Positions 6,339-58,883 are shown, counted from the first letter of the stretch. The stretch: 64,000 nt of DNA from Candidatus Binataceae bacterium (GCA_035650475.1 DASRHP010000013.1:21755-85754), one strand, 5' to 3'. Notes: generated from the sequence alone by a model not told the origin. Translations and numbers: made by a program.

Positions 6339-8302
<1,964 letters not shown>

Positions 8303-8872: not shown

Positions 8873-8881
8873 GGTTGGTGC

Positions 8882-9586: not shown

Positions 9587-9649
9587 GTGCACCTCGTCGG
9601 CGGGCGCAATTTTCTCGGGCGGCGCAGCGGCGCGCCCCGTGGAGGCCGT

Positions 9650-11116
9650 ATGACCGGAGAGCTTAACCGGGTAATCGAGCAGGTTTCCAAGGAGAAGGGG
9701 ATCGACAAGGCGATCGTGATAAACGCGGTCGAAGAGATGATGCATTCGGCGGCGCGCCGGACCTTCGGCCCCGATTGCCGCATCGAATCGCGCTACAACC
9801 AGGAGCTGGGCGAGGTCGAGCTGTTCGAAATCAAGACCGTGGTCGAGCAGGTCGTCAATCCACAAGCCGAGGCGACGCTCGAGGAGGCGCGCGCAAAGTA
9901 CGACCCTGAGGCGCAGGTGGGCGACGAGATCCTGATCAAGCTCGACACCGCGACGATGGGCCGGATTGCCGCGCAGGCGGCCAAGCAGAACCTCATCCAG
10001 CACATCCGCGACGCCGAGCGCAAACAGATCTACAACGAGTTCAAAGATCGCAAGGGCGAAATCGTCTCCGGCATCGTGCAGCGCTTCGAGCGCAAAAACA
10101 TGATCGTCAATCTCGGCCGCACCGAAGCGATCCTGCCCGAGAAGGAGCAGATCCCGCACGAGCGCTATCGCCAGGGCGATCGCATCCGCGCCCTCATCCT
10201 CGACGTCGATCTCTCCGAGAAGGGCCTCTCGATCGTGCTCTCGCGCACCTCCAACGACTTTTTGCGCAAGCTCTTCGAGCAGGAAGTGCCCGAGATATAC
10301 GAGGGCATCGTGGAAATCCGTCAGTGTGCCCGCGAGCCGGGCGGACGGGCCAAGGTCGCGGTGTACTCCAAGGACTCCGACGTCGACCCGGTCGGCGCGT
10401 GTGTCGGGATGAAGGGCACGCGCGTGCAGGCGGTGGTTCAGGAGCTGCGCGGTGAGAAGATCGACATCGTGCCATGGACTGACGACCAGGCCGAGCTGGT
10501 CTGCCGCGCACTTGCCCCGGCCAAGGTCTCCAAGGTGATCATCGACGAGGACGAGCATGCGATGGAGGTCGTGGTGCCGGACGACCAGCTCTCGCTGGCG
10601 ATCGGCAAGCGCGGCCAGAACGTGCGCCTGGCCCATCGGCTCTCCGGATGGAAAATCGATCTGCGCAGCGATTCCGAGGCCGAGGAGGAGGCGCGCAAGG
10701 CCCGCGCCTCGCTCAACGCCATCCCCGGCATCGGCGACATCAATGCCGAGCTGCTCTACCAGTGGGGATTCCGCTCGGCCGAGCAGCTGGCGGAAACCGC
10801 TGAAGAGTCTTTCGAGGTCGAGGGCATCACGCCTGAGCGTGCGCGCCAGCTTATTCAGGCCGCGCGCGAATGGGTTTCGAAGAAGCGTGCCGAGGAGGCC
10901 GCGGCGGCTGAAGCCGCCGCCGCTGCGGCTGCCGACGCCGCCACTGCTGCGGCTGCCGACGCCGCCACTGCTGCGGCGGCCGACGCCGCCGCTGCGGAGG
11001 TTGCGGCTGAGGACGGTGAAATCGAGGCGCCGCTTGCCGAAGGCGCCGAGGGCGTCGCTGCGGATGCGGCAGGCGAGCAGGGAGCGGTTCAACCGGATGT
11101 CGCGGCGAAATCATAA
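9650..11116 (+). CDS. nusA: transcription termination/antitermination factor NusA
   Basis: ATG at 9650 follows a GGAGG. S1 and KH domains, one HhH-like C-terminal domain, then an Ala/Asp-rich low-complexity tail. Confidence 0.9.
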   Translation: MTGELNRVIEQVSKEKGIDKAIVINAVEEMMHSAARRTFGPDCRIESRYNQELGEVELFEIKTVVEQVVNPQAEATLEEARAKYDPEAQVGDEILIKLDTATMGRIAAQAAKQNLIQHIRDAERKQIYNEFKDRKGEIVSGIVQRFERKNMIVNLGRTEAILPEKEQIPHERYRQGDRIRALILDVDLSEKGLSIVLSRTSNDFLRKLFEQEVPEIYEGIVEIRQCAREPGGRAKVAVYSKDSDVDPVGACVGMKGTRVQAVVQELRGEKIDIVPWTDDQAELVCRALAPAKVSKVIIDEDEHAMEVVVPDDQLSLAIGKRGQNVRLAHRLSGWKIDLRSDSEAEEEARKARASLNAIPGIGDINAELLYQWGFRSAEQLAETAEESFEVEGITPERARQLIQAAREWVSKKRAEEAAAAEAAAAAAADAATAAAADAATAAAADAAAAEVAAEDGEIEAPLAEGAEGVAADAAGEQGAVQPDVAAKS

Positions 11117-32623: not shown

Positions 32624-33958
32624 TTACTCGATGCCATAGCGTTTGCGCCGGCGCCAGAGCGTGGTGACGTTGATGCCGAGCGTGGCCGCGGCTTCCTCGA
32701 GCGTCGCGCTCTGCGCGAGGACGCGCGCGATGTGCTTTCGCTCGACTTCGTCGAGGCTTGCCGTTTGGCCAATCTCGGCAGTCTCCGCAGTCCGCTCGCG
32801 GAAGAGCGAATCGGGCAGGTCGTTGAGTGTAATCGCTTCGCTGCGGCTCAGCACGGCGGCGCGCTCGAGCGCGTTGCGCAACTCGCGCACGTTGCCCGGC
32901 CATCGGTAAGCCTGAATCGCCGCCGCCGCTTCCGGCGCCAGGCATATCGGCGGACGGCGGTTGCGCACGCTTGCCGCCGCAAGCAGCCATTCGGCCAGCG
33001 GCAGGATATCCTCGCGGCGCTCGCGCAGCGGCGGTACTGCCAGCGAGATCACGTTGAGGCGGTAGAACAGATCCTCGCGGAAGCGGCGCGCGGCGACCTC
33101 GGCGTCAAGGTCGCGGTTGGAGGCGGCGATAATCCGAATGTCAACGCGGATGGTGCGGTCGCCGCCGACCCGCTCGAAGCTCTGTTCCTGCACGAAGCGC
33201 AGAAACTTGGTCTGGAGCGCGCCCGAGAGATCGGCGATCTCGTCGAGGAACACGGTGCCGCCGTCGGCCGCTTCCAGCCGTCCGGGTTTGTCCTTGATCG
33301 CGCCGGTAAACGCGCCGCGCACGTGGCCGAACAGCTCGCTCTCGAGCAGCTCCTCGGAAAGCGTCGTGCAATTGACCACGACGAAGGGGCGCTCGTGGCG
33401 CGGGCTCCATTGATGGATTTGGCGGGCGAGCACGTTCTTGCCGGTGCCGCTCTCGCCGGCGAGCAAGATGGTGGCGTCGCTGGCGGCGGCCTGACGCGCT
33501 ATCTCGAGCAGCCGCACCATCGCCGGGCTGCGCGACTCGAGCATCGGCGCCTCGTCGATCGCGTTGCGCAGCGCGCGGTTCTCGGCTTGGAGGCGCTGCA
33601 TCTGGAGCGCGCGTTCGACGATGGGCTGGATCTGATCGAGCGAGAATGGCTTGGTGACATAGTCGTACGCGCCCGCCTTCATCGCGGCCACCGCGTTCTC
33701 CACCGTCGCGTAGGCGGTCATCAGAATGACGACGGTTTCCGGGCGGCGGCGCTTGAAGTCGGCGAGCAGCTCGAGCCCGTTGATCTCCGCCATCCGGTAG
33801 TCGGTCAGCACGAGGTCAAAGCCGTTTTCCTCGGCCAACGTGCTCGCCTCGCGCCCGCTGGCGGCGGTGTGCACCTCGTGGCCGAGCACTTCAAAGAAGG
33901 CCGCCAGGCTCGAGCGGATATTGCGCTCGTCGTCGACTATAAGCAGCCGCACCGTCAT
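32624..33958 (-). CDS. sigma-54-dependent response regulator (NtrC family)
   Basis: REC domain (DDE...D...K), AAA+ domain with GESGTGK and the GAFTGA sigma-54-interaction motif, C-terminal HTH. Start overlaps the upstream kinase stop. Confidence 0.92.
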   Translation of the reverse strand: MTVRLLIVDDERNIRSSLAAFFEVLGHEVHTAASGREASTLAEENGFDLVLTDYRMAEINGLELLADFKRRRPETVVILMTAYATVENAVAAMKAGAYDYVTKPFSLDQIQPIVERALQMQRLQAENRALRNAIDEAPMLESRSPAMVRLLEIARQAAASDATILLAGESGTGKNVLARQIHQWSPRHERPFVVVNCTTLSEELLESELFGHVRGAFTGAIKDKPGRLEAADGGTVFLDEIADLSGALQTKFLRFVQEQSFERVGGDRTIRVDIRIIAASNRDLDAEVAARRFREDLFYRLNVISLAVPPLRERREDILPLAEWLLAAASVRNRRPPICLAPEAAAAIQAYRWPGNVRELRNALERAAVLSRSEAITLNDLPDSLFRERTAETAEIGQTASLDEVERKHIARVLAQSATLEEAAATLGINVTTLWRRRKRYGIE

Positions 33959-35748
33959 GCCTCCCGCGTTGCGGGCAGCTGAACGACGAAGCGGCTGCCG
34001 TGGGGCGTGTTGCCGGTCACGAAAATTCTTCCGCTGTGCGCCATCACGATGTCTTTGACGATCGCCAGCCCGAGCCCGGCCGAGCCTTTCTTCTCGCCGT
34101 CGGCGCCGTACTGCGCGAAGCGTTCGAAGATGTAGTCGCGCAGCTCGGGCGCGATGCCGGGGCCGGAGTCGGCGACCTCAAGGCGCACGGTGTCGTCAGC
34201 CGAGCTGGTCGCGACCTCGATCCGTCCACCGGCGGGCGTGTAGCGCAGCGCGTTGCCGATCAGGTTGGAGACCAACCACGACAGCTTGACCGGGTCGCCG
34301 GTGACCTGCGGCACCGCCTCGACATGCTTATCGAGCCGCACGTGCTTGTCTTCGAGCTGGAGGGCGAAGCGGCCGATGACTTCGTCGGTGATGCGCGCCA
34401 GGTCCAGGCGCTTACGGGCGAGCGAGATCGAGCCCAATTCGCCGCGGGCAAGGCCAAGCAGGTTGTCGGTGAGCTGCTTCATCCGCGCGCACTCCTCGAG
34501 GATGGTGCGCAGCAGTTCGCGCTGGCGCGGCTCGAGCGAGACCTCATCACGCTGCAGCAATTGCGCGGAGAGCGTGAGCGAAGTCAGCGGTGTGCGCAGC
34601 TCGTGCGAGAGCGTCTCGATCAGGTTGGAGCGCGCGCGGTCCTGGTCGCGCAGGTAGGTTACGTCCTGGAGGATGAGCAGCGTGCCGAAAACGCCATCGG
34701 TGTCGTCCCGGCGCAGCGCGATCGGCTTGAGCACGTAGGAGTGATCGCGCCCGCGCACGTGGAGCTGCACTTCGGTGCGCGGAACTTCGGGCGCTGCGCG
34801 CCTGAGTCCGCGCAGCGCGTCGCGCACACGCAGGTAATGCGGCGAGTTGCTGCTCAGATCGTCGAACGGACTGCCCAGCGCCTCGCGCGGCGCGATGTCG
34901 AGGATGAGCGAGGCGATCTCGTTGATATGGGTGACTACGCCCTCGGGGTCGATCAGCACCACGCCATCCTCGAGGCTCTCGATAATCGCTTCGGTCTTGC
35001 GCTTTTCGAAGAGCAGGCGCTCGACATTGAGCTTCTCGTACTGCTCGAGCTGCTCGGCCATCTGGTTGAATTCGCGCGCCACCGCGTCGAGCTCGGCCAG
35101 CGGCTGCGGCCCCAGGCGCACCTGCGTACGCCGCTGGCTTACTCCGCGCAGGCGCTCGGCGAGCTCGGTCAGCGGCCGCGCCAAAGCCCATCCGAAGCCC
35201 CACGACACCGCCGCGCCTGCGAGCAACAGCACCGCCAGGCAGATTGCGAACTCGTAGCTCAGCCGAGTGCCGAGGCGGGTCGCGCGGCTGTTGGCGCGGA
35301 ACATCGCCGCCTGGTTCATCGCGATGAGGTCGTTTAGGCGCGCGTGCAGCTCCTCGAACTGCCGATCGTGCCGCGGCCCCGGCGGCGCGCTTGCAATCTC
35401 GCCGAACAGCCGCCGCGCGCGCTGCTCGATATCATGCGCGAGCTGGGGCTCGCCGATCTCCGTGTAGTCGTGGTTCTCGACCTCCATCCAGTGCATGAAG
35501 GTCTGGCGCTGGCGCGCCAGCTCTTCGGCTGCGCGGCCGTCGCGCTCGGCGAGCTGGAGCACGCGCAGCGCGGCGTGCATGTGCTGGGCCGCTTCGATGC
35601 TGACGTAGTTGCGGTACAGGGTTTCGCGGATCGCGCCGCCGAGGCGGTAGACGCGGGGCAGCGCGTAGATTCCGACGCCCATCACCAGCGCTAGCATCAG
35701 CAGCGTGGCATTGCGGATGCGCGAGCGCAGGGAGGGCAGCGCGCTCAT
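33955..35748 (-). CDS. sensor histidine kinase (TM-HAMP-PAS-HisKA-HATPase)
   Basis: 597 aa. H-box LSHELRTPL, plus N, G1 and G2 boxes. Start overlaps the KdpD-N stop (ATGA), stop overlaps the regulator start. Confidence 0.88.
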   Translation of the reverse strand: MSALPSLRSRIRNATLLMLALVMGVGIYALPRVYRLGGAIRETLYRNYVSIEAAQHMHAALRVLQLAERDGRAAEELARQRQTFMHWMEVENHDYTEIGEPQLAHDIEQRARRLFGEIASAPPGPRHDRQFEELHARLNDLIAMNQAAMFRANSRATRLGTRLSYEFAICLAVLLLAGAAVSWGFGWALARPLTELAERLRGVSQRRTQVRLGPQPLAELDAVAREFNQMAEQLEQYEKLNVERLLFEKRKTEAIIESLEDGVVLIDPEGVVTHINEIASLILDIAPREALGSPFDDLSSNSPHYLRVRDALRGLRRAAPEVPRTEVQLHVRGRDHSYVLKPIALRRDDTDGVFGTLLILQDVTYLRDQDRARSNLIETLSHELRTPLTSLTLSAQLLQRDEVSLEPRQRELLRTILEECARMKQLTDNLLGLARGELGSISLARKRLDLARITDEVIGRFALQLEDKHVRLDKHVEAVPQVTGDPVKLSWLVSNLIGNALRYTPAGGRIEVATSSADDTVRLEVADSGPGIAPELRDYIFERFAQYGADGEKKGSAGLGLAIVKDIVMAHSGRIFVTGNTPHGSRFVVQLPATREA

Positions 35749-36899
35749 CGCTCTTCCCCGGCCTGGATGGCCACGACTTCAACGTCGAAGTCGACCGCCT
35801 CCTCGAGCAGGCGCTTGGTGATGTCGCGCCCGAGCAGACGGCGCCACAGCGGCTGATGCGTGCGGCCGAGCACGATCTTGGTGATCCCGTGCGTACGGGC
35901 GAAGTCCAGCAGCGCCTGCGTCACGTTGTCCGATTTAAGCCACACGCTTTCGGCGCCGAGATCGCTGGCGAGGTTGATGTTGTCAAGCAGGGCCACGAAG
36001 TCGCGAGTGCTGATGCGGCTGACCGACTCGGCCGGAGTCTCAACATGCACGGCATACCAGTCGGCGCCAAGCTGGCCGGCGATGCGGCAGGCCTTGCGCA
36101 GCAGCTCGCGCGCGGCGTGCGGATTGGACGATAGCCCGACCATCACCCGCTCGGCCGGCTGGGCGCGGCGTCCGCCCTCGCGCTGGAGCGCCTCGCGATC
36201 CTCGCGCTGGCGGCAGAGCCCGCGCGCGACCTCACGCAGCGCGATCTCGCGCAGCGAGGCCAGGTTGCTGGGCTTGAAAAAGCTGCGCAACGCCTGTTCG
36301 ACCTGCGGCGGCGGGTAGATTTTGCCCTCGCGCAGCCGCTCGCGCAGCGCCTCGGCGGTGATGTCGACATTGACCACCTGGTCGGCGCGGGCTAGAAAGC
36401 TGTCGGGCACGGTCTCACGCACGTCGACCCCGGTGAGCCGCTTCATCAGCGGGTTCAAACTCTCGACGTGCTGGATATTCATCGCAGTGATTACGTTGAT
36501 GCCCGCGGCGAGCAGTTCCTCGACGTCCTGGTAGCGTTTCTCGTGCTTGGAGCCGGGGACGTTGGTGTGCGCAAGTTCGTCGACCACCACGACCTCAGGC
36601 TTGCGCGCCAAAGTCGCGTCCAGGTCCATCTCCTCCACCGTCGTGCCGCGATACTCGACGCGCCGGCGCGGGATCACTTCGAGGTCTCCAACCTTGGTCA
36701 GCGTTTCGGCGCGGCCGTGGGTCTCGATCAGCCCGAGCACCACATCGACGCCGTGCTCGCGGAGTTGATGCGCTTCCTCCAGCATCCGCCAGGTCTTGCC
36801 CACGCCCGCTGCGGCACCGATATAAATCTTGAGCCTGCCCTTCGGCGACTGGGCGACCAGGTCGAGAAATGATTCAGGCTCAGGCCGCTCCTCGTCCAT
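35745..36899 (-). CDS. kdpD: KdpD N-terminal sensor domain plus USP domain protein (stand-alone, no kinase domain)
   Basis: 384 aa. IYIGAAAGVGKTWRMLEEAHQLREHGVDVVLGLIETHGRAET ... MNIQHVESLN matches the KdpD N-terminal (Kdp-sensing) domain, followed by a universal-stress-protein-like domain. No TM or HisKA domains. Confidence 0.85.
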   Translation of the reverse strand: MDEERPEPESFLDLVAQSPKGRLKIYIGAAAGVGKTWRMLEEAHQLREHGVDVVLGLIETHGRAETLTKVGDLEVIPRRRVEYRGTTVEEMDLDATLARKPEVVVVDELAHTNVPGSKHEKRYQDVEELLAAGINVITAMNIQHVESLNPLMKRLTGVDVRETVPDSFLARADQVVNVDITAEALRERLREGKIYPPPQVEQALRSFFKPSNLASLREIALREVARGLCRQREDREALQREGGRRAQPAERVMVGLSSNPHAARELLRKACRIAGQLGADWYAVHVETPAESVSRISTRDFVALLDNINLASDLGAESVWLKSDNVTQALLDFARTHGITKIVLGRTHQPLWRRLLGRDITKRLLEEAVDFDVEVVAIQAGEER

Positions 36900-36928
36900 C
36901 CAGCTTAGTATACGCCGCGCTCGGTCTC

Positions 36929-37513
36929 TCAGCGCTGTCGCTGACCGAGGTGGTCGAGGGCCAGGTTCAGGTCCAGGACGTTGACGCCGGGCTCGCCAAA
37001 CACGCCGGCGAATCGCGGGCGGGTGTGCTCGCGCACGAGACCCTCCACCACGTCAGGGCTCAGGCCGCGCGCTTTAGCGACGCGTGCGACCTGGAGTTGC
37101 GCGTCGGCTGGGCTAATCTCCGGGTCGAGGCCGCTGCCCGAGGCGGTAACCATTCCCGTCGGCACCTGCTGAGGCGTGGCGCCCGGGTTCTCTTCGAGCA
37201 CCTTGTGCAGCGCGTCCCGGACGTCGTCGATGAGCTTGCGGTTGGTCGGGCCGAGGTTGGAGCCGCCCGAGTCGGAAGCGTCGTAGCCCCTGGCGCCGGC
37301 ATCCGAAGGTCGGGGATGGAAGTAGCGCGCCTGGGTGAAGCTCTGGCCGATCAACTCTGAGCCGATTACCTGCCCGCTGCGCACGATGAGGCTGCCATTG
37401 GCCTGCCAGGGGAAGGCAGTCTGCGCGATTACATAGACCGCGAGCGGATAGATGATGCCGGTCACCACCGTCAGCGCTATCACCATCGCGATCGCGGAAA
37501 GCAGCGTGCGCAT
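36929..37513 (-). CDS. kdpC: potassium-transporting ATPase subunit C
   Basis: 194 aa. N-terminal TM, then the KdpC pattern (ASGSGLDP, GLVREHT). Confidence 0.9.
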   Translation of the reverse strand: MRTLLSAIAMVIALTVVTGIIYPLAVYVIAQTAFPWQANGSLIVRSGQVIGSELIGQSFTQARYFHPRPSDAGARGYDASDSGGSNLGPTNRKLIDDVRDALHKVLEENPGATPQQVPTGMVTASGSGLDPEISPADAQLQVARVAKARGLSPDVVEGLVREHTRPRFAGVFGEPGVNVLDLNLALDHLGQRQR

Positions 37514-37524
37514 GTCTCGCTTCC

Positions 37525-39567
37525 TTATGCCAGGTGCAGAGCTGCGACTAGCAAATCAATCGCCTTGATGCCGATGAACGGGATGAGCACGCCGCCCAGG
37601 CCGTAGATGAAGAGGTTGCGGGTCAGGATCGCCGCCGCGCCGAGCGGGCGGTAGGCAACGCCGCGCAGCGCCAGCGGGATGAGCGCGATGATGATCAGCG
37701 CGTTGAAGATGACCGCCGACAGAATCGCGCTCTGCGGAGTTGCCAGGTGCATGATGTTGAGCGACTGGAGTTCGGGATATTCCACCACGAACATCGCCGG
37801 GATGATCGCGAAATACTTGGCGACGTCGTTGGCGATCGAAAAAGTGGTCAGCGCGCCGCGCGTCATCAGAAGCTGCTTGCCGATCTCGACGACCTCCATG
37901 ATTTTGGTCGGGTTGGAGTCGAGGTCGACCATATTGCCGGCCTCGCGCGCGGCCTGGGTGCCGGCGTTCATCGCGACCCCGACGTCGGCCTGCGCCAGCG
38001 CCGGCGCGTCATTGGTGCCGTCACCGATCATCGCGACCAGTTTGCCCTGCGCCTGCTCCTCGCGGATGAGCTGGAGCTTGGTCTCGGGCGTGGCTTCGGC
38101 GCGAAAGTCGTCGACGCCGGCCTCATAGGCGATGGCGGCGGCGGTCAACGGATTGTCGCCGGTGATCATCACCGTACGCATGCCCATCGCGCGCAGGCGG
38201 GCGAAACGCTCGCGGATGCCCTCCTTGATAATGTCTTTGAGGTGAATCACGCCGAGCACGCGCGGGCCGTCGGCGACCACCAGCGGCGTGCCGCCCGCGC
38301 GCGCGATGCGCTCGACGATTCCCGCCAACTCGGGCGGCGCGGCGCCGCCGTTTTCCCTGACGAACTTCACCACTTGGTCGGCTGCGCCCTTGCGTACTCG
38401 GCGGCCGTTGAGGTTCACCCCGCTCATGCGGGTCTGCGCCGAGAACGGGATGAATTCCGCCTCATGCTCGGCGAGTTCGCGTCCGCGGAGGTTGTATTCG
38501 CGCTTGGCCAGCACCATGATCGAGCGGCCCTCCGGCGTCTCGTCGGCGAGCGAGGCCAATTGCGCGGCGTCGGCCAGTTCCTCGATTCGGGTGTCGAGCA
38601 CGGGGATGAACTCGGTTGCCATCCGGTTGCCGAGCGTGATCGTGCCGGTCTTGTCGAGCAGCAGGGTGTCAACGTCGCCGGCCGCCTCGACCGCGCGCCC
38701 TGACATCGCGAGCACGTTGTGCTGAACGAGCCGGTCCATCCCGGCGATGCCGATTGCCGAGAGCAGGCCGCCAATGGTCGTGGGAATCAGGCATACCAGC
38801 AGCGCAACCAGCACCGGCAGCGAAAGCGAGGTTCCGCCGTAGCGCGCGAACGGATAGAGGCTCACGCAGACCAGCATGAAGATGATCGTCAGGCCGGCGA
38901 GCAGGATGCTGAGCGCGATTTCGTTGGGCGTCTTCTGGCGCTGCGCGCCCTCGACCAGGTTAATCATGCGATCGAGGAAGGTCTCGCCGGGGTTGGCAGT
39001 GATGCGCACCTTGATGTGGTCCGAGATAACCGTGGTGCCGCCGGTTACCGCGCTGCGGTCACCGCCGCTCTCGCGAATCACCGGCGCCGATTCGCCGGTT
39101 ATCGCCGCCTCGTTGACCGCCGCGATTCCCTCGATCACTTCGCCGTCGCCGGGAATCATGGCGCCCGCCTCGACCAGCACTATGTCGCCGCGTTTGAGCC
39201 TGGTCGCCGGCACCATCCGCACCGCGCCGTCCTGCCCGACCAGCTTGGCCTGGGTCTCGGTGCGGGTCTTGCGCAGGTTATCGGCTTGCGCCTTGCCGCG
39301 CCCCTCTGCCATCGCTTCGGCAAAGTTCGCAAACCCCACCGCGAACCACAGCCATAGCGCGATTTGAAACTCGAAGAGGGCGAGCCCGAACTGTCCCTCG
39401 AGAAAGTCGCGGATCAGGATCAGGGTGACCGCGGCCGCGGTGACCTCGACCACAAACATCACCGGGTTGCGTAGCTGGATGCGCGGGTCGAACTTGCGCA
39501 TCGAGTTGAACAGCGCGCCCCGCACGATCTGACGGTCCCACAGCGCCGTCGCCTTACGCTCTGCCAT
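37525..39567 (-). CDS. kdpB: potassium-transporting ATPase subunit B (P-type ATPase)
   Basis: 680 aa with DKTGTIT phosphorylation motif, TGDNPLTA and [12 protein letters not shown]. Confidence 0.95.
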
Positions 39568-39613
39568 CGCGATTCACTCCTTGCCCATTACAGGTAGTGC
39601 GCGCGACGCGGCC

Positions 39614-41338
39614 CTAGTAGAGCTTGCCCTTCATCATGACGAGGTGTTCGACGATCGGCCCCAGCGCGTCGACCGGGAAGAACGTCAGCGCGGCGACGAT
39701 CAGGACCACGCCGACCAGCAGCACGACGAAGATCGCGCCATTGGTAGGAAAGGTCCCGGCGCTCGGTGGTACCGCCTTCTTGCCCGCCAGCGACCCGGCC
39801 AGCGCGAGCACCGGGATCTTCATCATGAAACGGCCGAACAGCATCACGAACGCAAGCGTCGAGTTATAGAAGGGGGTGTTCGCATTGAGCCCGGCGAAGG
39901 CCGAGCCGTTGTTGGCTGAGGCCTCGGTGTAGGCGTAGAGAATCTGCGTGAGGCCGTGCGGCCCGGGATTTGTGATCCCGGCAAGGCCAGGCTTGGTCAC
40001 CACGGCGATGCCGGCCAGGATCAAGATCACCGCGGGAAAGATCAGGATGAAGAGCATAGCGAGCTTCATCTCGCGCCCCTCGATCTTCTTGCCCAGGTAC
40101 TCCGGCGTGCGCCCCACCATCAGCCCCGCGATGAACACCGCGAGCACCGCCATCACCAGCATCCCGTAAAGTCCCGAACCGACGCCGCCGAAGATGATCT
40201 CGCCGAGCTGCATGTTGACCAGGGGGACCAGTCCGCCGAGCGGGGTGAAACTGTCGTGCATCGAGTTCACCGCGCCGCACGAGCTGTCGGTAGTGACCGT
40301 CGCCCACAGCGCCGAGTCAACGATGCCGAAGCGCGTCTCCTTGCCCTCCATGTTGCCGCCGCTGTCGCCGGGCGCGGCGGCCTGGCTGATTCCCAGTTTG
40401 GCGAACTCGGGATTGCCCCGTTGCTCGGCCCAAATCGCTGGCGTCACGCCCATCAGAAAGAGGATTGCCATCGCGCCGAACAACGCCCATCCCTGACGCC
40501 GGTCACCCGTCATTTGGCCGAAGGTGTGCGTCAGCGCCGCGCCGATCGCGAAGATCGCCAACAGCTCAATCAAGTCGCTGAGCGGAGTAGGGTTTTCATA
40601 GGGGTGGGCGGCGTTGGCGTTGAAGAAGCCGCCACCGTTGGTCCCGAGTTCCTTGATGATCTCCTGCGAAGCGACTGGACCTTCGGCGATCACCTGCTCG
40701 GCGCCCTCGACGGTCCTTGCATGGACATAAGGGCTAAAGTTCTGCGGCACCCCCTGCCATACCAGCGCCAGCGCGCCGACTAGCGAGATCGGCAGCAGCA
40801 CCCACAGCGTCGCGCGAGTCAAATCGACCCAGAAGTTGCCGATGGTCCTCGCGCCGGAGCGGACGAAGCCGTGGATAACCGCAATCGCGACCGCGATGCC
40901 GGCCGCGGCGGAGACAAAATTGTGAAAGGCGAGCCCGGCCATCTGCGTCAGATAGCTCATCGTGGTTTCGCCGCCGTAGGCCTGCCAGTTGGTATTGGTG
41001 GTGAAGCTTGCCGCCGTGTCGAAAGCGAGATCGGGCGCGACTCCGGCGAAGTGCTGCGGGTTGAGCGGCAGGAACGCCTGCAAGCGCTGCATCGCGTAGA
41101 GCACGATCATTCCGACCATGCTGAACAGCAGCATCGCGATCGCGTACTCCCGCCAAGTCATCTCCGCGCCCGGACGTACGCCGCACAACCGATAGATCAG
41201 GCGTTCGACCGGCTCCAGCATCGGGTCGAGGAAGGTCCGCTCGCGGGCGAACACGCGCGCCATGTAAAGGCCGAGCGGCACGCTTACCGCGGTGACGATA
41301 GCGAGAAAAATCCCCACCTGGAGGACGGCATTCCACAT
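39614..41338 (-). CDS. kdpA: potassium-transporting ATPase subunit A
   Basis: Start taken at the internal ATG (41338, MWNAVLQVGIF...). The upstream 46 codons of the ORF look like non-coding read-through. KdpA-like 10-TM channel subunit. Confidence 0.9.
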   Translation of the reverse strand: MWNAVLQVGIFLAIVTAVSVPLGLYMARVFARERTFLDPMLEPVERLIYRLCGVRPGAEMTWREYAIAMLLFSMVGMIVLYAMQRLQAFLPLNPQHFAGVAPDLAFDTAASFTTNTNWQAYGGETTMSYLTQMAGLAFHNFVSAAAGIAVAIAVIHGFVRSGARTIGNFWVDLTRATLWVLLPISLVGALALVWQGVPQNFSPYVHARTVEGAEQVIAEGPVASQEIIKELGTNGGGFFNANAAHPYENPTPLSDLIELLAIFAIGAALTHTFGQMTGDRRQGWALFGAMAILFLMGVTPAIWAEQRGNPEFAKLGISQAAAPGDSGGNMEGKETRFGIVDSALWATVTTDSSCGAVNSMHDSFTPLGGLVPLVNMQLGEIIFGGVGSGLYGMLVMAVLAVFIAGLMVGRTPEYLGKKIEGREMKLAMLFILIFPAVILILAGIAVVTKPGLAGITNPGPHGLTQILYAYTEASANNGSAFAGLNANTPFYNSTLAFVMLFGRFMMKIPVLALAGSLAGKKAVPPSAGTFPTNGAIFVVLLVGVVLIVAALTFFPVDALGPIVEHLVMMKGKLY

Positions 41339-41361
41339 GATGAGCGGCCTTGCACGCGCGG

Positions 41362-41454
41362 CTAGAAGCGCTCGGGGTGCAGCAGCGCCCAGACCAGGTA
41401 GGCGATCAGAAGGACTGCGCCCACCGAACCCAAGATCAACTCCCAACCGCTCAT
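41362..41454 (-). CDS. kdpF: potassium-transporting ATPase subunit F (KdpF peptide)
   Basis: 30 aa MSGWELILGSVGAVLLIAYLVWALLHPERF, a single TM, ending 24 nt before kdpA. Not in the ORF track (too short). Confidence 0.75.
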   Translation of the reverse strand: MSGWELILGSVGAVLLIAYLVWALLHPERF

Positions 41455-41546
41455 AGCCGGCGGCATCCTTCGACATAGGCGACGCTGATCGCGAAGAAGG
41501 TGACGCTCGCCGCGAGGAAGACTAGATCCAGCATGTCAGCCTTAAA

Positions 41547-41562
41547 AGCAGAAGCCGTGCCA
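41547..41562 (-). promoter_or_regulatory. candidate sigma-54 promoter of the kdp operon (TGGCACG-N4-CTGCT on the - strand)
   Basis: Minus-strand TGGCACGGCTTCTGCT, GG and GC at consensus spacing, about 93 nt upstream of kdpF. Confidence 0.5.
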
Positions 41563-41974
41563 GAACCAACACGGCTCAGAAGCGGGAATTTTCCACCCCC
41601 TCCGTAATTCAGGATGCAGACTGCACTGGGAGGCCTTGCACTTCGCAATCGCTTGAAGAGCAACGACTCACCAGCCGTCAGAGCGTCAGCCGCGGGTGGC
41701 GGCGGAACCAACAATGTGTTCGGATGGCGCGGCGCACGGGAACGCGTGGGCACAACGAGCCGAGCGTTTCCGGCCAGCGTGGCTTACTAACCATGTTTCA
41801 ATCCAAAAAGAACGAAACCATCCAAGGGCCGAAGCGCCGGTTCCGCCCCCGACGACCGCTATCGGACTCGTCGGGCACGCCAGTTAGATCGCGAGCCGCC
41901 TGATGCGTTGCGCGCCGTGCAGTCGAGCCGCTACAGTGGCACGGACGCGAGCGCAGCACGGAATCCGTCCATGA

Positions 41975-52705: not shown

Positions 52706-52905
52706 TTAATCCCTCAGGCACGAGGGCTACGGGAGGCAGCCGTCTCAGGTCTGACACGATTTGGCGTCGTCCGCTGTCGCATGCGGCGTAGGCGGTCAGG
52801 TTTTGCTGTCGGAACAGCTTTTGCGTGAATTCGCTGAGGTTTGCCGCCGGTTTCCACCACTTCCAGCAACATCCATGCGAAGGCGGCTTCGGCTGGCGCA
52901 CTGTC

Positions 52906-55900
52906 ATGGGCGATGAACGAACCTCCACAGCCTCGCTCGAGGTTGGAATGGGCTCGGGAACCGCGGCGGGACGCAGCGGGGCAGGCCGGGTCCTTCTCGA
53001 CTTGCTGCCGGACGCCGCGCTGATTGCCGATCGCAGCGGGACGGTCCTGGCCGCCAACCATAAACTGATTGAGCTGTTTGAGGCCGAAACATCTGAACAG
53101 ATCGTTGGGCGAAAGCTATTCGCGCTCATCGCACCGGAGCAGATGCACGCAGCGATGGGTGCACCACGGAGCTATGGCAGCTCTGTTCACGCCGTGCTTG
53201 ATGCAACAACGCTAAAGGGGAATCCGCTCAGTGTTGAAATCTTCGATCTGCCGTTAGTTACGGATTCCGGTCAGCCCGAATGCATCCTGAGCCTCGCGCG
53301 CGACGTCAGCGCACGCAAGCGCGCCGAGCGCGAGCAGGCGCTGCTCGCCGCGATCGTGCAGAGCGCCGATGCGGCCATTCTCAGCATCACGTTGGACTTT
53401 CGCATCGCGAGCTGGAACGCCGCGGCGGAAAAGCTGTTCGGCTATACGGCCGAGGAAGCCATCGGCCGCCAGCCTACCGAGTTGGTCGTGTTTGCGGCGG
53501 ACAAGGAGCGCGCTTTCACACAGTTCGCCGCCGACGTCGAAGAGTTTCTTCGGGGCAAGCGCGAGGCGCACTATTTTGAGGAAACGCTGCGCCGCAAAGA
53601 CGGCGGTCCGCTTCTCGTGTCGTTCATCGTCTCCGGCGTCTATGACGGCAACGCGGAACTCATCGGCGTGTCGGTCATCGTGCGTGACATTACGGAACAG
53701 AAACGGGCGGAGAGCGCGCGCGCTCGGCTCGCTACAATCGTGGAAGCTTCCGACGACGCGATAATCGGTGTTACCTCCGACTTCCGCGTTGCGACCTGGA
53801 ACCGTGGTGCGCAAAAACTGCTGGGCTTCACCGCCGAGGAGGCGATCGGTCAATCGTGCGATATTTTCATACCATCCGACCAACTCGGTCGCGCCCATGC
53901 CATGTTCGTTTCGGTCGCCGAGCAACCCGACCATGTGCTGCGGTTCGAGGCGCGGTTGCGGCGCAAGGGCGGGGACGAGGTAGAGGCCTCGGTGGTGGCG
54001 GCCGAAGTCCAGGGTGCGGGCGCCGAGATAAGCCAGTCGGTAATCATGCGCGATATCACCGAGCGGCGGCGTGCCGAACGCGAGCAGGCGCTGCTCGCCG
54101 CGATTGTCGAGTCCTCCGGCGACGCTATCGTAAGCGTTGCCCTCGACGGCACCATCACGAGTTGGAACCCTGGGGCTGAAAAACTTTTCGGTTTCACCGC
54201 CGGTGAGGCGGTCGGGAAACCACTGACCATTTTTGTTCCAGCCGATCAACAGGAGCGTACCGCGCGCGTGATTGAAGAGCTCCGGACCCACCCCGGGCGC
54301 GCAATCAGCTTCGAGGCGCCCAATCTCAGGAAGGACGGCAGTCGGATCGAAACCGCGATGACGGTTTTCGGCACCTACGGCCGCGACGGCAGGTTGCTCG
54401 GCATTGCCTCAATCCATCGCGACGCCACCGAGCGGCGGCGTGCCGAACGCGAGCGGGCCCTGCTTGCCGCGATCGTTGAGTCCTCTGAGGACGCCATCAT
54501 CAGCATCGACACCGAGCTGCGCATCACGAGCTGGAACAAGGGCGCCCAAAGGCTGTTCGGATTCACCGCCGAGGAAGCGCTCGGCCGGCCCTTCACGCTG
54601 TTCGTCCAGCCCGAGCGGCGCCAGTATGCCGTCGAGGGCGCTCGACGGAGCCAACGCGGCCTCGTCGAGGTAACCGGACTGGAAGTGAACTGCCAACGCA
54701 AAGACGGCAGCGTAATCGAGGTCTCAATCACCGCCTCGCCCGTCTACGGCCCCGGCGGCGAGGTGATCGGCCAGTCGGCGATCATGCACGACATAACCGA
54801 GCGCAAGCGCGCCGAGCGCGCCCTAATTGCCGCGCAGCGCGAGCTGCGCGCACGGCTCAACCAGCAGGGGGTGGTCGCCCGTCTGGGCCAGCGCGCACTG
54901 GAGCAGATCGATCCGGTCAAGCTGATGGAGGAGGCGGCAGTGTTGCTCGCCGAGACGCTCGGCGTCGAGCGCTCGGCGATTTTCGAGCTTCAGCCGGGGG
55001 GCAAGTCGCTGCTGCTGCGCGCGGGCTACGGCTGGGAGGCGGGCGCGATCGGGCAAGCGACGATGGATGCCGACAAGCAGACCTTGGTCGGTTACACGCT
55101 GGCGGCCAAGGCGCCAGTGGTAGTGAGCGACTTCGGCGCCGAAACCCGCTTCCACCGCGGCCGGCTGGTTGGCGCCGAGGGCGCGGCCAGCGCGCTGGCG
55201 GTGGTGGTCTCCTTCGACGGCGAGCCCTGGGGCGTGCTGGTGGTAGAGAGCAGGGCCACGCGTGAGTTCAACCACGACGACGTCAACTTCGTCCAGGCGC
55301 TCGCCCATATTCTCGCCGAGGCGCTGGTCCGCCAGCGCGCCGAGCAGGAGCTGCGCGCCGCGCGCGACGCCGCACTGGAGTCGGCGCGCGCCAAGTCGGC
55401 CTTCCTTGCCGCGATGAGCCACGAGATTCGCACTCCGCTCAACTCGATCGTCGGCCTTATCGGTCTGCTACTCGACACCCCGCTTACGGCCGAGCAGCGC
55501 GACTTTATGCAGAATATCCTCGCCAGCAGCGATGCCCTGCTCAGCATCATCAACAACGTGCTCGACTTCTCGCGGCTCTCGGCCGGCAAGGTCGTGCTCG
55601 AGGAAATCGAATTCGACCCGCGCGCGGTAACCGAAGGCGCGGCCGACATGGTGGCCGAGACGGCGCAGCGCAAGGGGTTGGAGCTTGCGGTCTCGATCGA
55701 TGAGCGGGTTCCCGCCCGGCTGCGCGGCGACCCTGCGCGTCTGCGCCAGATCCTGATCAACTTGCTCGGCAATGCGGTCAAGTTCACCGAGAAAGGGGAA
55801 GTCGTGGTGCGGGTGAGCCTGGAGAGCGAAACCGACACCACCGCGCATCTGCGCTTTTCGGTCACCGACACCGGCATCGGCATCTCCGAGGAGATGCAGC

Positions 55901-57399
55901 GCATCCTGTTTCGGCCCTTCTCGCAGGCGGACACTTCAACCACGCGCAAGTACGGCGGCACCGGGCTCGGCCTTGCGATCTCTTCGCAGCTGGCCGAGCA
56001 GATGGGCGGCAAGATCGGGGTGAGCAGCCGCCCCGGCCAGGGATCGACTTTCTGGTTCACCGCCGACTTCGCAAAGACGGCGGCAAGCGAGACCCCTCAG
56101 AGCGGCGAGCGCGAGCTCGAGGGCCTGCACGTCCTGATCGTGGACGACAACGCGACCAACCGCTGGATTCTCAGGCATCACGTCGAGTCATGGGGAATGC
56201 GAGCCGACGCGGTGGCAAGCGGTGCCGAAGCACTCGACCTTGTCCGCGACCGCGCGGCCAGTGACCCTTACGCAATCGTCCTGCTCGATTACTTCATGCC
56301 CGAGATGGACGGGCTCGAGCTCGCCAATCGCATCAAGGCCGACCCCGCCAACGCCGACGTGCATCTGGTGATAATGTCTTCGGCGGGGCGGCCGCGCGAG
56401 TTCGGCGCCCGCGCGACGCCGATCGAAGCCTGGCTAACCAAGCCAGTCAAATCGGGGCAGCTCTTTAAGTGCCTCACCGCGCTCCCGCCCCACGACGGTG
56501 AGCGGCCCAGGCGTGCACCTGCGCCGGCCACGCTCACGCCCGCCGAACGTGCGTCTGCAGCGGTCGCGCCGGCCAAGGCGGCGGAGACCGCTGCTCCCGC
56601 GGGCGGCCGCATCCTGCTGGTCGAGGACAATCCGATCAACCAAAAAGTGACGCTCGCTCAGCTGAAGCGGCTCGGCTACGAGGCCGACGGCGCCTCCAAC
56701 GGGCGCGAGGCGCTCCAGGCCATCGAAAGGACGGCCTACGACGCGGTCCTGATGGATTGCCAGATGCCCGAGATGGACGGTTATGAGGCGACTCGCGAGC
56801 TGCGCCGGCGTGAGGCGGGTAAGCGCCATACGGTGGTCATAGCGATGACCGCCTATGGCTTGGCAGGGGACCGCGAAAAGTGCCTGGCTGCCGGGATGGA
56901 CGACTACATCGCCAAACCGGTGCGCAAGGAGCAACTTGCCCAAATACTTCAACGCTGGCTTGCTCCCAAGCCGCAGTCTGCGGTGGCGACCCCGGCCGCT
57001 CCGGCCGGCGCACCCGGCGCCGACGGCGAGGCGCTGTTCGACGTCGCGGTGCTTGGCGCGCTGCGCGGCGAAGGTAAAGAGTTTTTCACTGAACTCACCG
57101 AGATGTTCAACGCCGAAGTGCCAGCGTCGCTCGGCCAGCTCGCCGAGGCGTTCGCCAAGGGCGACGCCGGGGCAGTAGCGACTGTCGCATACCGGATCAA
57201 GGGGGCGGCGGCGATCTTCGGGGCGCGCCGGATGCAGGAGCAGGCCGCTGCGATCGAACAGACGGCGCGCGCGGGTTCGATGGAGTTGGCAGCCACCATG
57301 ATGGAAGAGCTGCGCGCCGAGTTCGAACGGGTGCGGGCGGTCCTTCAGTCCGAGTGCGCCAAGCCCGCTACGCCGACCGACGCGGCGCAATCAAACTGA
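52906..57399 (+). CDS. hybrid sensor histidine kinase (PAS x5, GAF, HisKA, HATPase, REC, REC, HPt-like)
   Basis: ATG 52906 (ORF opens at 52825). Four near-identical PAS modules each introduced by R(K/R)RAERE(Q/R)ALLAAIVES. GAF domain, H-box AMSHEIRTPLNS, two receiver domains with DD...D...K, and a C-terminal HPt-like domain. Confidence 0.88.
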   Translation: MGDERTSTASLEVGMGSGTAAGRSGAGRVLLDLLPDAALIADRSGTVLAANHKLIELFEAETSEQIVGRKLFALIAPEQMHAAMGAPRSYGSSVHAVLDATTLKGNPLSVEIFDLPLVTDSGQPECILSLARDVSARKRAEREQALLAAIVQSADAAILSITLDFRIASWNAAAEKLFGYTAEEAIGRQPTELVVFAADKERAFTQFAADVEEFLRGKREAHYFEETLRRKDGGPLLVSFIVSGVYDGNAELIGVSVIVRDITEQKRAESARARLATIVEASDDAIIGVTSDFRVATWNRGAQKLLGFTAEEAIGQSCDIFIPSDQLGRAHAMFVSVAEQPDHVLRFEARLRRKGGDEVEASVVAAEVQGAGAEISQSVIMRDITERRRAEREQALLAAIVESSGDAIVSVALDGTITSWNPGAEKLFGFTAGEAVGKPLTIFVPADQQERTARVIEELRTHPGRAISFEAPNLRKDGSRIETAMTVFGTYGRDGRLLGIASIHRDATERRRAERERALLAAIVESSEDAIISIDTELRITSWNKGAQRLFGFTAEEALGRPFTLFVQPERRQYAVEGARRSQRGLVEVTGLEVNCQRKDGSVIEVSITASPVYGPGGEVIGQSAIMHDITERKRAERALIAAQRELRARLNQQGVVARLGQRALEQIDPVKLMEEAAVLLAETLGVERSAIFELQPGGKSLLLRAGYGWEAGAIGQATMDADKQTLVGYTLAAKAPVVVSDFGAETRFHRGRLVGAEGAASALAVVVSFDGEPWGVLVVESRATREFNHDDVNFVQALAHILAEALVRQRAEQELRAARDAALESARAKSAFLAAMSHEIRTPLNSIVGLIGLLLDTPLTAEQRDFMQNILASSDALLSIINNVLDFSRLSAGKVVLEEIEFDPRAVTEGAADMVAETAQRKGLELAVSIDERVPARLRGDPARLRQILINLLGNAVKFTEKGEVVVRVSLESETDTTAHLRFSVTDTGIGISEEMQRILFRPFSQADTSTTRKYGGTGLGLAISSQLAEQMGGKIGVSSRPGQGSTFWFTADFAKTAASETPQSGERELEGLHVLIVDDNATNRWILRHHVESWGMRADAVASGAEALDLVRDRAASDPYAIVLLDYFMPEMDGLELANRIKADPANADVHLVIMSSAGRPREFGARATPIEAWLTKPVKSGQLFKCLTALPPHDGERPRRAPAPATLTPAERASAAVAPAKAAETAAPAGGRILLVEDNPINQKVTLAQLKRLGYEADGASNGREALQAIERTAYDAVLMDCQMPEMDGYEATRELRRREAGKRHTVVIAMTAYGLAGDREKCLAAGMDDYIAKPVRKEQLAQILQRWLAPKPQSAVATPAAPAGAPGADGEALFDVAVLGALRGEGKEFFTELTEMFNAEVPASLGQLAEAFAKGDAGAVATVAYRIKGAAAIFGARRMQEQAAAIEQTARAGSMELAATMMEELRAEFERVRAVLQSECAKPATPTDAAQSN

Positions 57400-57455
57400 G
57401 GACTGAGCGCTGCCGCGAGCCGATTTGCGGCCGCGGAGCGGCAGGCAGCAGCGTG

Positions 57456-57489
57456 CCCGGCGCATCCGCCCTCGCGAGGGTGCGCCGGG
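57456..57489. terminator. nested palindrome between convergent genes (possible bidirectional terminator)
   Basis: CCCGGCGCA-tccg-CCCTCGCGAGGG-TGCGCCGGG. Confidence 0.3.
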
Positions 57490-57544
57490 GCACATCGTTT
57501 CTCCAGTTGGACTCTGCGCGATCGTAGGACCGCGCCGCCCCCGG

Positions 57545-57763
57545 TCACTTGCCGCCGGCGGTCGCGCCGTGACGGCGGCTGATGCCGTTGTCGTGGTTGA
57601 ACAGAAGCCCAGCGGCCAACAGGCCCACCCCGAGCATCGTGAGCAGCACGAGCAGAAACGGCGGTGCCACTCCGAGCCGGACGAAGAAGCCGAAACTGAT
57701 TACGAAGGCAAGCATCACGGCCCCTAAGACCACGGCGATGTTTGCGTATCGAGCGCCTTCCAT
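57545..57763 (-). CDS. small two-TM membrane protein (hypothetical)
   Basis: 72 aa. ATG after a GGGAGA RBS. Two hydrophobic helices. Confidence 0.45.
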   Translation of the reverse strand: MEGARYANIAVVLGAVMLAFVISFGFFVRLGVAPPFLLVLLTMLGVGLLAAGLLFNHDNGISRRHGATAGGK

Positions 57764-58883
57764 CTGAAGATTCTCCCTTTTCGAAAGGATTCTGTAATCG
57801 TGTTGAGAGCACGCGCTGTGCCAGCGCGGCGCAGCCACGTACCGCTCGTCAAGCTAGCGGTGGACTGCACCAATGTGCCTGTCATTGCTCGTCGATGGTT
57901 CGCAGACGCCCCGTTGTTCGCATCACCGCGGTGATGCGGGTCCGTCCGTCGCGGAATCGCTCAGCAACGCGAACGCCTGTGTCTGAGACACTTGGGCCGT
58001 CTCACGCTGCGGCATTCGGGCTGCGCTTTGGAGCAAACGGAAGCTGGGAGCGGAAGTGCGATGCAGGCGCGATGAAAATGCGCGCGCTACGCGATGTGGC
58101 AGGGGCAATGGCAGGCGCTGCTCGCGCATCGCCCGTGCCCGCCTGTGACACATTCGATCGTGCGCGCCGCGGGTTCGCCCACGGCCGCCCTTTCTCCTGC
58201 CGACGGGTAATTCGATGAGAAGAGCCTACCCACCAGCCTGGCCGAACGGCGCGCCCACTGCGAGGTCGATAGTCGCGGCGGCAACGCTCTAAGCCAAGTC
58301 CTCAGGTCCGAGGCTTCGTCGGCGCTGGCGGCCGAAGGCGGGTTGGGGATCGCATTAGCTCGAAGATCGCGATCTCTCATGGAGCCAACTCTACGCTATT
58401 CAGGTCAGCAACGAAACCAAATTTCATCGCGCACTGATCCTGATGTCAACAATGCGTGTCATCAAAACGTGTGCGCGACCGCCAATGCCACGCGACCTTA
58501 AGCCTGGGTCGTCAAAAGTTGTGCATAGAAGAGCATGACGCGGCGTCCGCTGAATTACCGCGCAATATGCTTCCCAAATCGGCGCGGGGGCTCGGCTGTC
58601 GTGCGTGCGTTCTTGAAACGCATGCCGGGGGTCCCCCTCTTAACGAACTAACGCCCCCAGCATGCTTCCAAGATCCGTCGCCGGCGACATCGATCACGGA
58701 GCGCCACTCCGGCAGAGCAAAAACGTTGCCGACGAAGGGGCCAGCTAGTCGCAGTCTGAAATTCCGTAGTTTGCGTGGGCGATTCGTTGCGCCGCGGTCG
58801 TCCTCGCCAGATGAGGCGCTAATGTCGGTTTGCGCTCAGCCGATAACTTTTCGTCGAAGTGCCAATCAAACTTAGCGCAATTG

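Follow-up and report, generated by a model that had tools for sequence, protein, structure and literature searches.

A kdpFABC operon of a Candidatus Binataceae bacterium with a predicted sigma-54 promoter, a short KdpD and a KinB-like/NtrC-type regulatory pair

Described kdp systems and the Binataceae locus

The sigma-54-dependent control of a kdp potassium pump operon has been described in Desulfovibrio vulgaris Hildenborough, where the genes DVU3339.1-DVU3334 comprise kdpFABC, a protein made of the KdpD N-domain and a Usp domain (DVU3336), a sensory-box kinase (DVU3335) and a sigma-54 regulator (DVU3334) (Rajeev 2011, PMC3333781; Kazakov 2015, PMC4641369). The latter gave a peak at its own kdp promoter in the DNA-affinity-purified chip (DAP-chip) experiments, with the predicted palindromic site CGTTACATTTTGTAACG at -149 of the kdpF ATG, and orthologues were noted in D. 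vulgaris Miyazaki and Syntrophobacter fumaroxidans (PMC3333781). DVU3334, which bears the GAFTGA motif, is also listed in the sigma-54 regulome with the target DVU3339.1-DVU3337, "Potassium uptake" (PMC4641369). Here we analyze a DNA stretch of 64,000 nucleotides, hereafter the window, from a Candidatus Binataceae bacterium (GCA_035650475.1 DASRHP010000013.1:21755-85754), which carries a kdp operon of the same composition at positions 32624-41562.

Control at the level of the pump itself is known from Escherichia coli, in which the N-domain of KdpD is an atypical serine kinase that phosphorylates S162 of KdpB and thereby inhibits the pump at high K+ (Silberberg 2024, PMC11018627). According to the same work, the isolated N-domain is active, proteins with KdpD and Usp domains only represent the main version of KdpD where KdpE is absent, and the proposed K+-sensing sites of E. 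coli KdpD are located in the transmembrane (TM) and GAF part, not in the N-domain (PMC11018627).

Judged by the published description, the operon of the window has the same parts in the same order as that of D. vulgaris, a GAFTGA-containing regulator and a similar palindrome geometry. It belongs, however, to Binatota and not to Desulfobacterota, the half-sites of its palindromes read TGCR..YGCA instead of GTTACA..TGTAAC, and it has two such sites, approximately at -84 and -106 from the predicted transcription start, whereas one is listed for D. vulgaris, at -149 counted from the kdpF ATG. For D. vulgaris, the sigma-54 kdp design has already been published and in part tested, and the window adds a further example from another phylum. 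An earlier note on this DNA, made by a model from the sequence alone, had presented the arrangement as a departure from the canonical one; the implied novelty is lost, the same gene set and sigma-54 regulation having been described in 2011 and 2015.

Comparison with the E. coli kdpFABC-kdpDE genes gives 55% identity for KdpA, 65% for KdpB, 43% for KdpC and 44% for the N-terminal half of KdpD, and in both organisms the regulatory genes come after kdpC. On the other hand, the KdpD homologue of the window stops after the Usp domain and has no 4-TM/GAF/transmitter part, the kinase and the regulator are from other families, a promoter of sigma-54 type stands in place of the KdpE-activated sigma-70 type promoter, and an extra small open reading frame (sORF) is present. 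The split kdpD systems of Alicyclobacillus acidocaldarius, Anabaena and Deinococcus radiodurans, and the class that combines KdpD/Usp with a TM/GAF/DHpCA kinase and KdpE, likewise have a separate KdpD-N/Usp polypeptide encoded beside the kdp genes, but their second polypeptide is a true C-terminal half of KdpD, accompanied by an OmpR-type KdpE, and both of these are replaced in the window. The short KdpD of Deinococcus geothermalis (DgKdpD, PMC11018627) has the same two-domain architecture and falls in the same length class, and the catalytic residues as well as the Glu-Ser pair of KdpB are kept in the window; DgKdpD is, however, stimulated by cyclic di-AMP (c-di-AMP), whereas the window protein lacks the motif SXS-X20-FTAXY. 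Moreover, species with a short KdpD are seen in that work as controlled post-translationally, whereas the operon of the window encodes a dedicated sigma-54 two-component system. The elements of the locus are the following, in the direction of transcription.

41637..41647, reading TGCGAAGTGCA on the minus strand: distal enhancer-like palindrome, centred 80 nt ahead of the TGGCAC T, at about -106 relative to the predicted start of transcription
41615..41625, reading TGCAGTCTGCA on the minus strand: proximal enhancer-like palindrome, centred 58 nt ahead of the TGGCAC T, at about -84 relative to that start
41547..41562, minus strand: sigma-54 type -24/-12 promoter TGGCACGGCTTCTGCT, 11 of 12 specified consensus positions
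41451..41534, minus strand: hydrophobic sORF of 27 aa, MLDLVFLAASVTFFAISVAYVEGCRRL, stop overlapping the kdpF start (ATGA)
41362..41454, minus strand: kdpF, 30 aa (Pfam Potass_KdpF 7.3e-07; TIGR02115 27.6 bits, above cutoff)
39614..41338, minus strand: kdpA, 574 aa (Pfam KdpA 1.8e-251; 54.5% identity to E. coli KdpA)
37525..39567, minus strand: kdpB, 680 aa, P-type ATPase subunit (E1-E2_ATPase 1.3e-33, Hydrolase 7.3e-28; 64.9% identity to E. coli KdpB)
36929..37513, minus strand: kdpC, 194 aa (Pfam KdpC 1.3e-74)
35745..36899, minus strand: short KdpD, 384 aa, KdpD N-domain and Usp (Pfam PF02702 and Usp)
33955..35748, minus strand: KinB-like sensor histidine kinase, 597 aa (TM1, periplasmic four-helix bundle, TM2, HAMP, PAS, HisKA with H382, HATPase_c)
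32624..33958, minus strand: sigma-54-dependent response regulator, 444 aa (receiver, AAA+ with GAFTGA, HTH_8)

Taken together, these elements probably form an autoregulated kdp operon with two layers of control, namely sigma-54-dependent transcription and shut-off of the pump by the short KdpD. The KinB-like membrane kinase would phosphorylate the NtrC-type regulator, which would bind the two TGCR-N3-YGCA palindromes, located approximately at -84 and -106, form an AAA+ ring and, at the expense of ATP, open the sigma-54 promoter (41562..41547). One transcript would then cover sORF-kdpF-kdpA-kdpB-kdpC-kdpD(short)-kinase-regulator, and because it would reach the last two genes, the regulators would amplify their own synthesis. 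When K+ is replete, the short KdpD would phosphorylate Ser160 in the TGES loop of KdpB and switch off the existing pumps. The signal of the kinase is assumed, from the role of the pump, to be K+ limitation or turgor, and we likewise infer the single transcript and its start site.

The order of the elements on the minus strand (41562..32624) is promoter, sORF, kdpF, kdpA, kdpB, kdpC, short kdpD, kinase and regulator. The gene positions and the succession of kdpF-kdpA-kdpB-kdpC and three regulatory genes are all as the earlier note had placed them, and an independent public gene caller run on the source contig returned the identical gene set. This contig, 313.5 kb long and part of a metagenome-assembled genome, is k141_2752718 of ENA ERZ27279688, with the NCBI proteins HZO83355.1 and HZO83357.1. 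The start of kdpA is the ATG at 41338, in agreement with that call, and not the start of the open reading frame at 41476. The KdpFABC pump is complete, with KdpA, KdpB, KdpC and the adjacent KdpF; KdpB contains DKTGT at 305 and TGES at 157-160, the Ser160 of the latter corresponding to Ser162 of E. coli. ATGA overlaps join the sORF to kdpF (41534..41451 with kdpF), the short kdpD to the kinase gene (35748..35745) and the kinase gene to the regulator gene (33958..33955). The 4-nt overlaps proposed for the regulatory genes are thus found at two of the three junctions; at the other one, kdpC and the short kdpD are separated by a gap of 29 nt.

Promoter region and regulatory proteins

Screening of the window with the -24/-12 consensus places a sigma-54 motif upstream of kdpF, as had been anticipated from the sequence, and TGGCACGGCTTCTGCT is the sole match with at most one mismatch in the 64 kb. 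Since approximately 0.8 such matches are expected per window, this single site is not significant by itself. The comparison with related loci is decisive. In the following, L001 denotes the window, L003, L004, L005, L086, L087 and L088 are Binataceae-like relatives, and L151 is a separately arranged sigma-54 layout. The element is present upstream of kdp in all seven cassettes, matching 11 of the 12 specified positions in L001, L004 and L088, 10 in L005, 9 in L003 and L087, and 8 in L086; L151, in which the sigma-54 regulator gene directly follows kdpC, also has an 11/12 motif. The sORF ATG follows the C of the -12 GC at a distance of exactly 14 nt in L001, L003 and L004 (promoter-ATG regions 41534-41562 on the minus strand of the window, 2187-2217 in L003 and 1863-1893 in L004), and this identical spacing in three loci is far beyond chance. 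The loci L097 and L103, in which a KinB-like kinase but no sigma-54 regulator was seen, show no better than an 8-9/12 match; the contig of L097 ends at the kinase and L103 carries a receiver protein of 247 aa that is not of the sigma-54 type.

The upstream palindromes follow the same pattern of recurrence. The motif TGCR-N3-YGCA occurs five times in the whole window, and two of these occurrences are the sites located 58 and 80 nt upstream of the promoter, 22 bp apart from each other. Of the 20 matches present in the 112 kb of related loci, 9 lie within the 180 nt that precede the promoters, which corresponds to about 8.3 per kb as compared to 0.18 per kb overall. Sites equivalent in position to the distal palindrome are found in L003, L004 and L087, and a counterpart of the proximal one at -60/-61 in L003, L086 and L151, the copy of L151 being exact, at -61. 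L005 and L088 have palindromes with one mismatch, at -83/-84 and -66/-67. In the comparative sense, the sigma-54 promoter is real and is preceded by paired enhancer-like palindromes, and the proposal that sigma-54 control has been wired in at the place of KdpD/KdpE is likewise well supported.

Other signals were looked for in the same region. No sigma-70-like promoter was detected between 32000 and 42200, and Rfam at E ≤ 1 gave nothing relevant between 30000 and 44000. A riboswitch or structured leader was rejected on the basis of this missing Rfam match and of the fold of the 5' 208 nt, which is no better than that of shuffled sequences (z = -0.03). The inverted repeat AGCCGTG-N10-CACGGCT (41577..41552, minus strand), the second arm of which lies over the -24 element, is probably not a conserved operator and was dropped as such, being absent, by eye, from the closest relative L003. 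The spacer of 29 nt that separates kdpC from the short kdpD (36900-36928, minus strand) lacks a Shine-Dalgarno sequence and has TATACT at 7-8 nt from the ATG; this arrangement is common to the window and L003 (approximately 6815-6837) and does not occur in L004, L005, L087 and L088. It may constitute a weak internal leaderless promoter for basal expression of the regulators. Elsewhere in the window, a weaker -24/-12-like match with two mismatches, TGGCACAGCGCGTGCT, is located at 57808-57823 on the minus strand, near the start of a minus-strand open reading frame of 155 aa (57345..57812).

The 384-aa protein consists of the KdpD N-domain (Pfam PF02702, 1.2e-95, residues 20-226) and a Usp domain (5.5e-06, residues 250-368) only, as had been noticed before; it contains no TM segment detectable by hydropathy scan, and no GAF or transmitter domain. 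It is 44% identical to residues 7-374 of E. coli KdpD and matches the structure of the Pseudomonas syringae KdpD N-domain (PDB 2R8R) at 8.9e-68. NCBIfam holds a curated model named "KdpD-like non-kinase potassium sensor"; the score of the protein with NCBIfam KdpD_non_kinase is 377.8 bits, under the cutoff of 550. The catalytic residues of the serine kinase are kept, G28-X5-GKT36, W37, D107/E108 and R188 corresponding to G36-T38, W39, D109/E110 and R190 of E. coli, and the target loop of KdpB, AITGES160, with its Glu and Ser, is identical to the E. coli context. The protein is predicted to be better described as a stand-alone atypical serine kinase acting on KdpB than as the K+-sensing half of a KdpD. 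The function of K+ sensor that the earlier note had attributed to the N-domain is at variance with the literature, which describes this domain as a serine kinase and proposes the K+ sites in the TM/GAF part (PMC11018627).

Concerning the Usp region of the short KdpD, the c-di-AMP motif SXS-X20-FTAXY of the Staphylococcus aureus type is not present. The corresponding segment reads RKACR-X8-WYAVH, that is the E. coli-type motif RXXXR-X8-WXAVY with the Y changed to H. As the Usp motif is of the E. coli type, a c-di-AMP switch such as that of the D. geothermalis short KdpD is unsupported here, and c-di-AMP control was rejected as a candidate mechanism because SXS-X20-FTAXY is missing.

The kinase has two TM segments (approximately residues 11-34 and 159-190) that flank about 130 residues and are followed by HAMP, PAS, HisKA and HATPase_c domains, with the H-box SHELRTPL containing H382; its description as a 597-aa HAMP-PAS kinase without the 4-TM/GAF part of KdpD is borne out by these Pfam domains and by the number of TM segments. 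AlphaFold2, run with 21 relatives in the alignment, predicts a confident four-helix bundle for residues 30-170 (predicted local distance difference test score, pLDDT, of 91.6). Alignment with E. coli KdpD is restricted to the generic transmitter (31.6% identity, residues 659-880). The architecture with two TM segments, periplasmic helical sensor, HAMP, PAS and transmitter, and the pairing with an NtrC-type regulator, recall the KinB/AlgB system of Pseudomonas aeruginosa, which differs in having alginate genes as target instead of kdp, and the Joint Genome Institute (JGI) annotation files the pair under the KEGG family KinB/AlgB. Pfam KinB_sensor does not match the window kinase, so that the resemblance is to be taken as one of architecture; in a family of 25 members, KinB_sensor is found weakly in 2 and 4HB_MCP_1 in 3, and a four-helix bundle is a fold common to many sensors of kinases and chemoreceptors. 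This family is broad, KinB-like, and also found without kdp genes. As its similarity to KdpD is confined to the generic transmitter, the kinase is, on sequence and domain grounds, a KinB-like protein and not the missing half of a split KdpD, contrary to what had been suggested earlier.

The regulator fits the definition of a bacterial enhancer-binding protein of the NtrC family, with a receiver domain (Response_reg, 9.9e-29), an AAA+ domain (Sigma54_activat, 3.9e-67) containing the Walker A motif GESGTGK at 168 and GAFTGA at 215, AAA_lid_14, and a C-terminal Fis-type helix-turn-helix (HTH_8). The aspartate of the receiver is located by eye in TDYRM, near residue 53-54. Similarity to E. coli KdpE is seen in the receiver only and an OmpR-type winged helix is absent, which agrees with the initial assignment to the AAA+/sigma-54 class. 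No NCBIfam equivalog cutoff is reached, the nearest model being AtoC; the protein is named 'sigma-54 dependent transcriptional regulator' by NCBI and 'AlgB' by JGI.

Neither a second KdpD nor a KdpE is encoded in the 64-kb window. A hybrid histidine kinase of 1524 aa at 52825-57399 on the plus strand, with five PAS, GAF, HisKA and HATPase_c domains, two receivers and Hpt, is unrelated to Kdp regulation.

Distribution of the cassette and the small open reading frame

The survey of genomes with the kinase alignment covered a sample of 600 stretches, and the metagenome scan with KdpA was likewise a sample; neither is a census. The seven-gene cassette is found with unrelated flanking genes in L003, L004, L005 and L088, and L086 and L087 show the part of it that their contigs reach. 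Additional open reading frames are inserted in some of these loci, namely 93 codons long in L004 (6551-6832), after kdpC and before the short kdpD, 114 codons long in L005 (1846-2190), where it follows the sigma-54 promoter and precedes the sORF, and 43 codons long in L087 (428-559), where the product is hydrophobic.

Among the genome matches listed, the kinase is matched over most or all of its length in eight full-length sequences and in L012, which is cut by the contig end. Three of these long matches are from Bacteroidota, namely Flavitalea sp. BT771, a Bacteroidota metagenome-assembled genome and Hymenobacter ruricola. The order in L010 (Flavitalea sp. BT771, 1775-10662) and L012 is sigma-54 regulator, sORF, kdpF, kdpA, kdpB, kdpC, short KdpD and KinB-like kinase. 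In L016 (Hymenobacter ruricola), approximately 1.3 kb lie between kdpC and the short kdpD, and the available DNA does not extend as far as a regulator gene. The small hydrophobic open reading frame at the sORF position of the Bacteroidota belongs to a different family (…IDFFDKI), and TTTC-N6-GAAA repeats are visible by eye between the regulator gene and the sORF in these loci. The kinases of the remaining long matches listed have no kdp genes beside them, and a sigma-54 regulator is present in two of these loci.

The layout after kdpC could be interpreted in 32 out of 80 listed metagenomic relatives of KdpA (57-82% identity), with the following classes among them.

Short KdpD with another kinase and an OmpR-type regulator: 15 of 32 loci, the commonest class in the sample
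Short KdpD without visible partner, some with tandem copies: 8 of 32 loci
Full-length KdpD: 4 of 32 loci
Short KdpD with a KinB-like kinase: 3 of 32 loci
Complete sigma-54 cassette: 1 of 32 loci
kdpC followed directly by the sigma-54 regulator: 1 of 32 loci

The pattern suggests a short KdpD that remains associated with the pump and a transcriptional module that changes from locus to locus; that the short KdpD accompanies several kinase and regulator types fits a task tied to the pump and not to one kinase. Two layouts are worth describing separately. In L103 (10198-10941) and L132 (15232-15960), a receiver protein of approximately 245 aa takes the place of the sigma-54 regulator after the KinB-like kinase; the kinase is full-length in L103, an open reading frame of 266 aa was recovered for that of L132, and the C-terminal region of the receiver proteins is conserved by eye. 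In L129, L157 and L162, two short KdpD genes are arranged in tandem after kdpC.

The sORF ahead of kdpF defines a family of 25 members with the consensus MxDLxxxxxTVxFFAxxxAYVxxCxRL, 27-28 aa in length and hydrophobic, in which M1, D3, Y20 and C24 are invariant, F13 is nearly so, and length and frame are kept. Nucleotide differences amount to 920, 691 and 1176 at codon positions 1, 2 and 3, respectively. Copies are found in L003 (2215-2298), L004 (1891-1974), L005 (2225-2308), L086 (3648-3731), L087 (594-677), L088 (8794-8877) and approximately 15 further metagenomic loci. Among the 59 metagenomic loci in which kdpF was found, about 21 have the sORF, which occurs alongside every regulator type and often overlaps the next gene by ATGA. 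It was not found ahead of kdpF in E. coli, neither Pfam nor NCBIfam has a family for it, and it is called, unnamed, by JGI in the public protein collection. From the 14-nt distance between the -12 element and the ATG, a 5' leader of approximately 2 nt is predicted, which makes the sORF effectively leaderless. In L001, L003 and L004, where the promoter abuts the sORF, there is no Shine-Dalgarno sequence; where the promoter is more distant or was not identified, one precedes the sORF in four of five loci (L087, L133, L143 and L104, not L088).

It is conceivable that the sORF encodes a small membrane protein, not described so far, that is part of Kdp pumps or regulates them, and we put this forward tentatively. 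The extra small peptides KdpZ/KdpY of Clostridium acetobutylicum are a possible precedent. A literature search for a named sORF before kdpF, for kdpZ, kdpY or kdpX, and for sigma-54-controlled kdp in Bacteroidetes returned nothing relevant.

Control of the operon and alternative explanations

Several observations weigh against an autoregulated operon with two control layers. The short KdpD has neither the K+-sensing TM/GAF part nor the c-di-AMP motif, and so possesses no known switch of its own, and its tight translational coupling to the kinase is equally compatible with a complex of the two proteins. Autoregulation of a sigma-54 operon presupposes some basal supply of the kinase and the regulator, for which the TATACT before kdpD, in L001 and L003, is the sole candidate seen. 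The gene rpoN is not seen in the 64-kb window, which is too small for this to be informative. Finally, the canonical -24/-12 motif was not found in the scan of the Bacteroidota loci L010, L012 and L016, despite the same parts list.

A true split sensor, in which the 384-aa protein would act mainly as an accessory input or scaffold of the kinase and phosphorylation of KdpB would be minor or absent, has to be considered with respect to these points. The short KdpD could tune the kinase/phosphatase balance or stabilise a complex of kinase, regulator and DNA, a role that may also coexist with the two-layer model. Such is the reading given for DVU3335/DVU3336 by Rajeev et al., who describe the D. 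vulgaris kinase as split into two open reading frames (PMC3333781), and it was also that of the earlier note for the window. The ATGA overlap of the two genes implies co-translation in a fixed ratio, their pairing is conserved in Binataceae and Bacteroidota, and a short KdpD devoid of TM/GAF part and c-di-AMP motif would need a K+-sensing partner; the coupling and the missing switch thus speak for some interaction of the two proteins. However, the kinase is complete and self-sufficient, and its family also occurs without kdp or the KdpD N-domain; the short KdpD, for its part, also occurs in tandem copies, without any visible kinase, or alongside kinases of quite another type. Moreover, all serine-kinase residues and the KdpB target are kept, which would be needless for a pure scaffold. 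We regard a split sensor as the main rival but rather unlikely, and retain pump shut-off by a short KdpD next to sigma-54-dependent transcription as the preferred explanation.

The two other alternatives question the part played by the sigma-54 module. A canonical kdpDE located elsewhere in the genome could provide the K+ response, the sigma-54 module adding a second stress input, as the kdp operon of D. vulgaris is bound by three regulators (DVU3334, DVU3305 and DVU0596; PMC3333781) and the view of the genome is limited here to 64 kb. We consider this improbable, as these 64 kb contain no second KdpD-like gene, species with a short KdpD are mostly without KdpE (PMC11018627), no upstream sigma-70-like promoter was found that an OmpR-type KdpE could serve, and the cassette moves as one unit between genomic contexts. 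It might also be argued that the neighbourhood is coincidental, the kinase and regulator controlling other genes and the -24/-12 match being due to chance, for which one match with at most one mismatch is about what a 64-kb sequence would yield (mean 0.8). This possibility is effectively refuted by the presence of the motif upstream of kdp in eight loci, with a spacing to the first ATG that is identical in three, by the paired palindromes at fixed distances, by the co-occurrence of the motif with the sigma-54 regulator and by the experimental binding in D. vulgaris (PMC3333781).

The two-layer control probable for this locus corrects the view that species with a short KdpD rely on post-translational control only, and it raises the question of how a short KdpD is switched when both the K+-sensing domains and the c-di-AMP motif are missing. 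This question and the sORF, which is the most novel by-product of the analysis, are the points worth following, and the predicted promoter, enhancer sites and sORF are directly testable elements. With this locus, the sigma-54-controlled kdp design is no longer confined to sulfate reducers but includes Binatota, an uncultured lineage that is widespread in soil, and the same parts are present in Bacteroidota. Given the serine-kinase activity shown in 2024 for the KdpD N-domain (PMC11018627), the "split KdpD" may be read anew as a serine-kinase module that stays with the pump, combined with a transcriptional module that is interchangeable between KdpD-C/KdpE, a KinB-like kinase with a sigma-54 regulator, and a KinB-like kinase with another regulator.

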